Source: an uncultured Chlamydiae bacterium (GTDB lineage: Bacteria > Chlamydiota > Chlamydiia > Chlamydiales > JAJFMA01). From it: DNA of 64,000 nucleotides. A model generated the notes under the pieces. The model was not told where the DNA came from. It saw only the letters and a program-made list of their open reading frames with translations, and did not search any database. The stretch lies in contig CAVQMM010000001.1 of the NCBI GenBank assembly GCA_963713615.1, forward strand, positions 2,880,001-2,944,000, read 5' to 3'. How positions within the stretch are numbered: position 1 is the first letter of the stretch; the number at the start of each line of letters is the position of its first letter. Shown here piece after piece: positions 56,936-57,581 of this stretch. The translations under genes were made by a program, and so were the position numbers.

Positions 56936-56958
56936 AATAGACCTCTAAGAACAGAATT

Positions 56959-57000
56959 AAAAAAGAAAAAAAATATAAATTCTCCCATACGGGGAAGAAC
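56959..57000 (-). terminator. putative attenuator terminator
   Basis: minus strand GTTCTTCCC-cgtat-GGGAGAAT followed by TTATATTTTTTTTCTTTTTT, shortly before the transporter RBS. Confidence 0.55.
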
Positions 57001-57050
57001 ATTTGCGTGTCTGTAGCGTTTACAAAAATCTACAAACTAAAAAAAAGAAA

Positions 57051-57173
57051 TTAATTATTCTGCTGATTGCAATTATTATTGCATTGGAGGGAGAGAAGAA
57101 ATGAAAAGAAAGAAGTGTTAAAAATTGAACTTGTTGTTCTACACGTGATAAAGGTCGACTTTGGCAAACACAT
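57051..57173 (-). CDS. putative leader peptide (40 aa, Asn/Gln-rich C-terminus)
   Basis: TAAGGAGGT SD before ATG; MCLPKSTFITCRTTSSIFNTSFFSFLLSLQCNNNCNQQNN*. Confidence 0.7.
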   Translation of the reverse strand: MCLPKSTFITCRTTSSIFNTSFFSFLLSLQCNNNCNQQNN

Positions 57174-57581
57174 ATAAACCTCCTTAGTTTGCATCAATAG
57201 GATTTTCTGTTAAATAAGCAATAAACACAAGGAAAAAAGTGTGAAACAGCAGTTCCCGCTAAAGGATCTGCTTTACATACAATAAAGTTCTTAACCTGGT
57301 TGGCCCAATGATCTCCTTTGTTGACCCTATAGCCATTAAAGCCATCTTTAGGATTCTGATGGCCGTAGAATCCGAAGCCATCGCTCCAGAGGGTGGGACC
57401 GGCACATGCCTCTTGGCAAGGATTACATCATCCAAAAATCGGTAAAATCGAATTTGCGCAATTTGGTCCACCTCGTTTCCGCATTTGCTTTTATTCCTCC
57501 ATTTTGATAAAAATTTTTTTAACGCACCTTGCCGTTGTTGGTTCAGGGTGGGTTCTGAAATCACTTATTGGAGAACTCAAC

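Follow-up and report, generated by a model that had tools for sequence, protein, structure and literature searches.

In the enterobacterial thrL, ilvL and hisL attenuators, a ribosome translating a short leader peptide pauses at cognate codons when the corresponding amino acid is scarce and thereby tips the RNA from a terminator to an antiterminator, while in the tnaC-tnaAB operon of E. coli the leader encodes an arrest peptide, TnaC, that stalls its ribosome when Trp is abundant. The attenuation mechanism of trpL is set out in PMC7755916, and tna is named in PMC1262725. Actinobacterial leaders with runs of Cys codons were first predicted to be Rho-dependent, with pyrimidine-rich tracts as Rho sites (PMC1262725); the one such leader that has been dissected, the mycobacterial Ms5788A, acts via translation (10.1101/834739). 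Within the Chlamydiae, putative trpL leaders have been described in C. felis (40 aa) and C. trachomatis (59 aa) (PMC3937554, PMC7755916), the latter being portrayed in 2020 as an unvalidated and poor attenuator (PMC7755916). Members of the AGCS transporter family import glutamine in C. jejuni (GutA) and S. aureus, and the accessible part of the source makes no mention of leader-peptide control for either importer (PMC12795558). Our literature searches, which covered subscription journals and older attenuator surveys thinly, returned no paper on an Asn/Gln leader or on the element described below, and from the Chlamydiae they brought up putative trpL leaders only.

The locus considered here lies in the genome of an uncultured Chlamydiae bacterium, within a window of 64,000 nucleotides (the whole stretch of DNA that was analysed), on whose minus strand a short leader ORF precedes a gene for an AGCS symporter (Table 1). 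The original prediction had named a 40-codon ORF with a perfect Shine-Dalgarno (SD) sequence and nine Asn or Gln codons among its final 11, two hairpins between this ORF and the AGCS start, and the AGCS symporter itself; all of these proved to be present, at the coordinates listed. An AGGAGG-like SD is also the consensus in an alignment of the homologous leaders. CCUCC at the 3' end of the longest G-free run is complementary to the leader's own SD, and base-pairing is predicted between the post-stop pyrimidine tract and the nucleotides immediately 5' of that SD. A promoter scan returned no minus-strand promoter above threshold; the candidate in Table 1, which falls below it, consists of a -35 TTGTGT (57230-57225), 17 nt of spacing and a -10 GAAAAT (57207-57202), and TTGACA is found 5' of the leader in three homologues (L014, L074 and L092). 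Overall, the structure of the leader region is not unusual (z -1.23), and its terminator-like hairpin is possibly a pause site or weak terminator. Rfam gave no relevant match (two weak, unrelated matches at the locus and none on leaders at nine loci), no covariance model of a T-box or other Rfam cis-element matched at the leaders, and a plasmid search was likewise without a match. An Rfam Acido-Lenti-1 match above gathering score does occur 3' of an AGCS orthologue elsewhere (L014:3088-3132). Mobile-element-like sequences flank the locus in the window (53922-54412, 58800-59566, 60485-61720 and 62131-63768); from reading their sequence, we take them to be integrase-like fragments, reverse-transcriptase (group II intron-like) fragments and two transposase-like genes.

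Table 1. Features of the leader locus and its flanks, in the order of transcription (window coordinates).
Feature	Position	Strand	Remarks
Candidate weak sigma66/70-like promoter	57202..57230	-	7/12 matches, read by eye
Leader Shine-Dalgarno, TAAGGAGGT	57178..57186	-	4 nt 5' of leader ATG (57173)
Leader ORF, 40 codons	57051..57173	-	protein C-terminus QCNNNCNQQNN
G-free C/U-rich stretch, 47 nt, Ser/Phe/Leu codons, rut-like	57083..57129	-	longest G-free run
Sensor codons Q30-N40 (6 Asn, 3 Gln, 2 Cys)	57054..57086	-	adjoin stop codon
Small hairpin UGCAAU/AUUGCA from Cys-Asn and Asn-Cys codons	57068..57083	-	-4.0 kcal/mol
Post-stop pyrimidine tract, ends UUAG	57031..57050	-	part of rut-like stretch
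Hairpin 1	57009..57037	-	arms 57037-57030 / 57016-57009, -6.6 kcal/mol; not conserved
Terminator-like hairpin and U-rich tail	56958..57000	-	stem 57000-56979, -7.8 kcal/mol; lineage-specific
AGCS gene Shine-Dalgarno, AGAGGT	56941..56946	-	from sequence
AGCS symporter gene, 452 aa	55577..56935	-	PF01235, E 5.6e-73
DUF4440 protein gene, downstream	54947..55381	-	co-transcription possible; not a conserved neighbour

Within its own genome, the leader ORF stands apart: among 7144 SD-preceded ORFs of 8-70 codons genome-wide, it is the sole one (with two alternative starts) to carry nine N/Q among its last 12 residues, the runners-up having seven and six, and in a ranking of 511 short intergenic ORFs with an SD, based on 29 amino-acid groups, it comes out on top (p 2e-7). 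AGCS orthologues are present in 69 of 400 sampled Chlamydiota genomes (one further genome went unscored) and on 53 metagenome contigs; none was found in the 29 scored genomes of family f36 (by inference Chlamydiaceae), in two tested members of which asnS is absent. From 115 distinct upstream regions, we picked 28 leaders by eye, and after viewing these we set a strict rule for calling a leader: an SD, 15-60 codons, at least five N/Q in the last 14, and a stop within 350 nt. In the main test set of 79 loci (at least 51% identity, 400 nt of upstream DNA), strict leaders precede 23 AGCS genes (this locus and 22 orthologues), the remaining 56 loci being without one, and the genomes with a strict leader number 12, spread over five families. 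The same rule called no leader in the 79 reverse complements, at 28 loci of 38-51% identity or at 30 loci below 38%, so that the N/Q-ending short ORF that the original prediction expected upstream of orthologous AGCS genes is found at 23 of 79 loci, as against 0/79 and 0/58 in controls. Other amino-acid pairs reached 0-8 of 79 under this rule, the highest being NK, which shares Asn, and the N/Q rule called none in 17 further upstream stretches of the distant AGCS group. These comparisons support the reading that the Asn/Gln-codon leader is conserved and specific to one AGCS subfamily.

A profile built from 24 leaders and run over 401 genomes produced 12 strong matches, each at a training locus in front of this AGCS gene; of 27 weak matches (E 0.002-0.05), 19 were inspected, none of them a leader, and no copy before another gene was found. 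In the genome that holds the locus, no leader ranked upstream of two AGCS paralogues, asnS or the asnB-like genes, nor upstream of the GS-III gene, which was covered by the genome-wide short-ORF scan only. Leader presence requires 17 changes on the transporter tree (106 rows) compared with 25 for shuffled labels, and this scattered distribution would fit an old element that has often been lost. Homologous leaders are 20-40 codons long, with Cys as residue 2 in 13 of 28 and a TAA stop in 25 of 28; the N-terminal two thirds of the peptide are unconserved (mean column identity 36%), and the consensus of the tail reads S-F/L-Q-Q-C-N-x-N-C-N-x-Q-N.

Several loci depart from this pattern. In one clade (L078, L105 and L140), leaders of 22-23 codons keep the Phe/Ser-Gln motif with most Asn/Gln codons lost, possibly through decay or a switch of the sensed amino acid. 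At L050:1800-1900 there is a leader-like remnant, frameshifted and with no SD, on a contig whose AGCS gene is frameshifted too, possibly through sequencing error. An exception picked by eye from the more distant AGCS subfamily (L120) has a 48-codon N/Q-tailed ORF without an SD upstream of its AGCS gene; its ATG begins 7 nt downstream of a promoter match, TTGCTA-17-TATAAT, and the ORF is possibly a leaderless version. In family f30 (L202-L218), members of that subfamily sit, without a leader, mostly at the end of a conserved gene string in which AGCS follows what we take, from reading the sequence, to be a secretin-like gene.

The composition of the leader tails bears on what is sensed. Across the 28 leaders, Asn and Gln account for 27.0% and 21.4% of tail codons, compared with 2.1% and 3.3% of codons in the AGCS genes. 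Gln is freely written with either codon (CAA 41, CAG 43), Asn as AAT in 100 cases against 6, and Cys, which makes up 10.2% of tail codons, as TGC in 39 against 1. The AAT and TGC bias implies that part of the tail is constrained as RNA and not as codons, and it fits a small hairpin with a GCAAU/AUUGC motif, which occurs in 16 of the 28 leaders: compensatory changes in this hairpin include eight cells changed on both sides (1/500 shuffles), with the structure drawn from the same sequences. Some leaders have Arg or Ser in place of Cys but preserve the letters GC-AAT, and leaders that lack the Cys hairpin retain their Asn/Gln codons. The loop of the palindrome varies (4, 7 or 10 nt), which rules out a fixed-spacing DNA operator. 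Taking the sensing role alone, we regard it as very probable that the leader is a ribosome-read sensor of Asn/Gln supply.

The strongest argument for this reading is an internal control, provided by sister leaders before his and leu operons, which supports sensing of the encoded amino acid. The rank-2 short ORF of this genome has a His-run tail and lies before a purH-hisI-G-E-D-C/B-H-F-A operon; hisD occurs in five of 401 genomes, and all five his operons are preceded by a His-run leader (L223:1210-1299, at G000:C1:2500709 on the plus strand, and L229-L232). These leaders comprise 29-43 codons, with a Ser/Phe/Leu-rich segment, a His run adjoining TAA and a U-rich tract, and the single leu operon found in five genomes searched has a Leu-run leader of the same layout as the Asn/Gln leader. 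Because the tails of the His and Leu leaders match the pathway encoded downstream, Asn/Gln sensing and a Gln/Asn substrate are likely at the AGCS locus.

Further details of these operons, and of other amino-acid operons, are as follows. A TTGCAA-17-TACAAT promoter is clear before the His leader in G000, and one product of the purH-his operon is a HisC-HisB fusion of 741 aa that holds another domain between the two. The Leu-run leader has 36 codons (L241:6178-6288, in G396:C1) and ends 130 nt before a gene that, from its sequence, we take to be leuB-like. Upstream of a thrA-thrB-thrC-like operon (G000:C1 ~1773870-1773780, minus strand), an ORF of 30 codons carries a Thr run in its centre and has the look of a thrL leader of the classical type. 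Trp operons in five genomes have no Trp-run leader. In G000, a short ORF before trpE (C1 ~1092970-1092875, minus strand) has a start resembling genes at that place in four other genomes, which are presumably trpR-like; it is possibly a decayed trpR whose palindromic, operator-like promoter has been kept.

How the two amino acids would reach the leader depends on tRNA charging. The original prediction supposed that AsnRS is missing, as in C. trachomatis, and that one leader could therefore sense the amide donor for both amino acids through GatCAB. For Asn this does not hold: asnS is present in this genome and in all 14 leader-bearing genomes (split in G336), so that Asn codons would report free Asn directly and only Gln goes via GatCAB. 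For Gln the proposal stands, all 12 strict-leader genomes lacking glnS and possessing gatB. Across the 14 leader-bearing genomes, glnS is present in one and gatB in 13, the exception in both cases being G160, with a single Asn and a single Gln in its leader. None of 9 glnS-positive genomes has a strict leader, as against 12 of 34 glnS-negative ones (Fisher p 0.044, for genomes that are not independent and with G150 left out for its short upstream DNA). The putative sensor is better, and more simply, read as bivalent, with Asn supply reported via AsnRS and Gln supply via GatCAB. In five leader genomes AsnA was not found, no AsnB scores above the cut-off, and glutamine synthetase is present in three; the genome of the locus itself contains a GS-III-like gene, and its two AsnB-like genes narrowly miss the cut-off.

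The 452-aa protein is an AGCS-family Na+/amino-acid symporter of a Chlamydiota subfamily, with Gln/Asn import as its predicted role. It scores 272.4 bits against TIGR00835 (cut-off 272.65) and is related to the AgcS alanine symporter (PDB 6CSE, E 2.7e-45). Like GutA, its S. aureus homologue and AgcS, it belongs to PF01235, but it falls in a distinct Chlamydiota subfamily, and its substrate is a predicted one. The candidate substrate is suggested by the leader family, with thin support from gene neighbours and protein family: in a scan of 60 neighbouring ORFs (42 downstream and 18 of 24 upstream), one is linked to Gln/Asn, and neighbours are not conserved. That one is glnS in G267, the start of which is overlapped by the AGCS orthologue (L201, G267:C4:146082-149038); gatB was not found in the G267 genome, which is 90% complete.

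Readings of the tail that dispense with Asn/Gln starvation fare poorly against these data. It is quite improbable that the leader is a TnaC-like arrest peptide, whose S-F/L-Q-Q-C-N motif would stall the ribosome at abundant free Gln/Asn and so induce uptake: Ser, Phe/Leu and Cys are indeed conserved beside the run, and a leader ending beside a rut-like stretch resembles tnaC, but leaders of this layout with His or Leu runs stand before biosynthetic operons, for which a response to shortage is to be expected, and the replacement of Cys by Arg or Ser keeps the RNA letters rather than the residue. A small trans-acting protein, such as a transporter partner or a CxxxC metal binder, would suit the strong SD, the length of up to 40 residues and the two Cys seen in many copies; this is very unlikely in view of the poorly conserved N-terminal two thirds, the lengths of 20-40 residues, the several copies without the Cys pair, and the lack of any Pfam or NCBIfam match. 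The abundance of Cys in the tails and the near-uniform use of AAT (100/106) could point to cysteine, or to queuosine modification through slow reading of AAT, as the actual signal. However, the remaining codons read with queuosine show no enrichment (Tyr 1.0%, His 0.8% and Asp 0.3% of tail codons), three or more Cys occur in a tail at 1 of 79 loci, and the AAT/TGC bias fits the small hairpin; we reject queuosine or Cys sensing on these codon counts, and give it as little credence as the small protein. As for chance, AAT repeats are AT-rich and there are 27 N/Q-rich windows genome-wide, but the idea that the AAT runs are mere AT-rich low complexity is refuted at the sequence level by the rank of 1/511 and by the orthologue counts against both control sets, which makes its probability negligible.

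The same Asn/Gln sensor could be coupled to the transporter gene in more than one way. The original prediction invoked a hairpin and an intrinsic terminator, and a hairpin with a U-rich tail is present at the locus, as is, by eye, a hairpin soon after the stop in four His leaders. But a hairpin of -8 kcal/mol or below precedes a U-tract in just 3 of 28 leaders, the spacers being mostly unstructured, which rules out a conserved intrinsic terminator; no antiterminator toggled by ribosome position was found at this locus, and in the proposed folding with and without a ribosome the stem remained 0.72-0.90 formed in all six ribosome models. In addition, the sensor codons adjoin the stop, and the classical scheme misfits since there stop- and sensor-ribosomes cover different RNA. 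We thus find classical attenuation through the terminator-like stem improbable. An effect on translation, in which the tail pairs with the transporter's ribosome-binding site (RBS) unless a stalled ribosome covers it, is suggested by MFE and centroid folds of 56930-57200 that pair tail segments with the AGCS SD region, by spacers that are often short (many of just 48-77 nt), and by the same layout in Ms5788A (10.1101/834739). Tails, however, pair with their own AGCS RBS no better than with the RBSs of 51 leaderless orthologues (-9.02 vs -9.04 kcal/mol), the own RBS beats 90% of the leaderless ones at 1 of 23 loci, own and cross pairings are similar (p 0.09-0.53), and a gain of more than 0.15 in AGCS SD access on a modelled stall is limited to 0-2 of 23; pairing of the Ms5788A type is rejected on this basis, and a translational output is unlikely. 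A little less likely again is control of mRNA stability, with the stalled ribosome shielding single-stranded RNA from an endonuclease such as RNase E, which prefers U-rich substrates: post-stop and spacer regions are U-rich and unstructured, yet this would leave the selection for C at synonymous sites unexplained.

That selection is part of a broader signature. Around the stop, the Asn/Gln and His leaders (32 in all, with L120 left out) share 100 nt of RNA that is rich in C, poor in G and weakly folded. Ranked against other windows of the same locus, 26 of the 32 reach the top 5% for C>G skew, and all 32 belong to the least-structured 20%. The skew is partly due to the Asn, Gln and His codons themselves; C/G reaches 3.15 at -75..-30 across the 28 leaders, and synonymous choice favours C (Phe is TTC 17 times vs TTT 6 in tails, and 151 vs 618 in AGCS). 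All 14 leader genomes encode rho, and Rho acts at rut sites in C. trachomatis (PMC7755916). Pairing of the leader SD region with the pre-run and post-stop segments of the same leader is also stronger than with segments taken from other loci (p 0.012 and 0.006, two of seven pairings tried, among related loci; p 0.004 each with His leaders added). A stalled ribosome raises modelled leader-SD access by more than 0.1 in 10 of 32 leaders, no more than a ribosome at the stop does (p 0.34), and in this genome the leader SD is 0.57-0.83 paired under single-ribosome masks. The pairing tests are moderate evidence only for self-occlusion of the leader SD, since they compare related loci and since a single stalled ribosome frees it in no more than those 10 leaders.

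The model we favour, which we judge to be about evenly poised between right and wrong, is an Asn/Gln starvation attenuator that most likely blocks Rho-dependent termination before the predicted Gln/Asn importer. Ribosomes would start at the strong leader SD, as suggested by that SD and by conservation of the frame. With enough Asn-tRNA (from AsnRS) and Gln-tRNA (from GatCAB), a ribosome would finish the leader and leave, after which the leader SD may pair with the C/U segments flanking the sensor run, a step with moderate support that would limit re-initiation; Rho could then be recruited by the exposed C-rich, G-poor RNA and terminate transcription ahead of the transporter gene or within its first part. 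When Asn or Gln is short, a queue of stalled ribosomes would build up on the run and cover the C-rich stretch, so that transcription could read through. Rho output is the uncertain step, both expression and output mechanism being predicted from sequence, and spacers as short as those noted above argue against it, in that they leave Rho little room to act before the transporter's own ribosome loads. Whatever its output, the element most likely functions like a leader-peptide attenuator that falls outside both the classical terminator/antiterminator type and the translational type of Ms5788A.

Set beside the described systems, the locus shares traits with each. Like the enterobacterial multivalent attenuators (thrL, ilvL, hisL and trpL), it has a short leader with cognate codons, two amino acids being read per leader; unlike them, it has no conserved terminator/antiterminator pair and no Rfam match, and its sensor codons adjoin the stop. 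As in tnaC, the stalled ribosome at the end of the leader would mask a rut site, with read-through into a permease operon as the outcome, but stalling here would come from missing charged tRNA and not from an arrest peptide. The actinobacterial Cys leaders likewise have a cognate run adjoining the stop, pyrimidine-rich tracts and no conserved terminator (PMC1262725); the present leader differs in its Asn/Gln codons, in being SD-led where those are leaderless, and in its putative control of a transporter gene. Whereas the tail of Ms5788A pairs with the downstream SD (10.1101/834739), no such pairing is seen here, and self-pairing with the leader's own SD is suggested instead. The putative chlamydial trpL leaders are of the same phylum and are also unusually long, and that of C. 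felis resembles the Asn/Gln leader in having a Ser/Phe/Leu-rich segment before tandem cognate codons near its C-terminus; their cognate codons, however, are for Trp and not Asn/Gln, and the Asn/Gln family numbers at least 23 loci, with the His leaders as an internal control. Tentatively, and at somewhat less than an even chance, we propose that Chlamydiota own a class of hairpin-free, Rho-coupled leader attenuators of which this locus would be the Asn/Gln member. The layout of such a class, put forward with the same reserve, would combine a lengthy leader, a Ser/Phe/Leu segment resembling a rut site, cognate codons in a run at the stop, and a leader RBS occluded by the leader's own RNA.

If this proposal is true, a host-dependent bacterium would gauge the glutamine and asparagine of its host with its own ribosome. 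Chlamydiae have, to our knowledge, few transcription factors, and conserved Asn/Gln, His and Leu leaders would show ribosome-based amino-acid sensing in environmental chlamydiae. The element suggests Gln/Asn as a substrate to test in a transporter subfamily that is uncharacterised, it makes a compact test case for attenuation without a terminator hairpin, and it would add Asn and Gln to the amino acids read by leader peptides.
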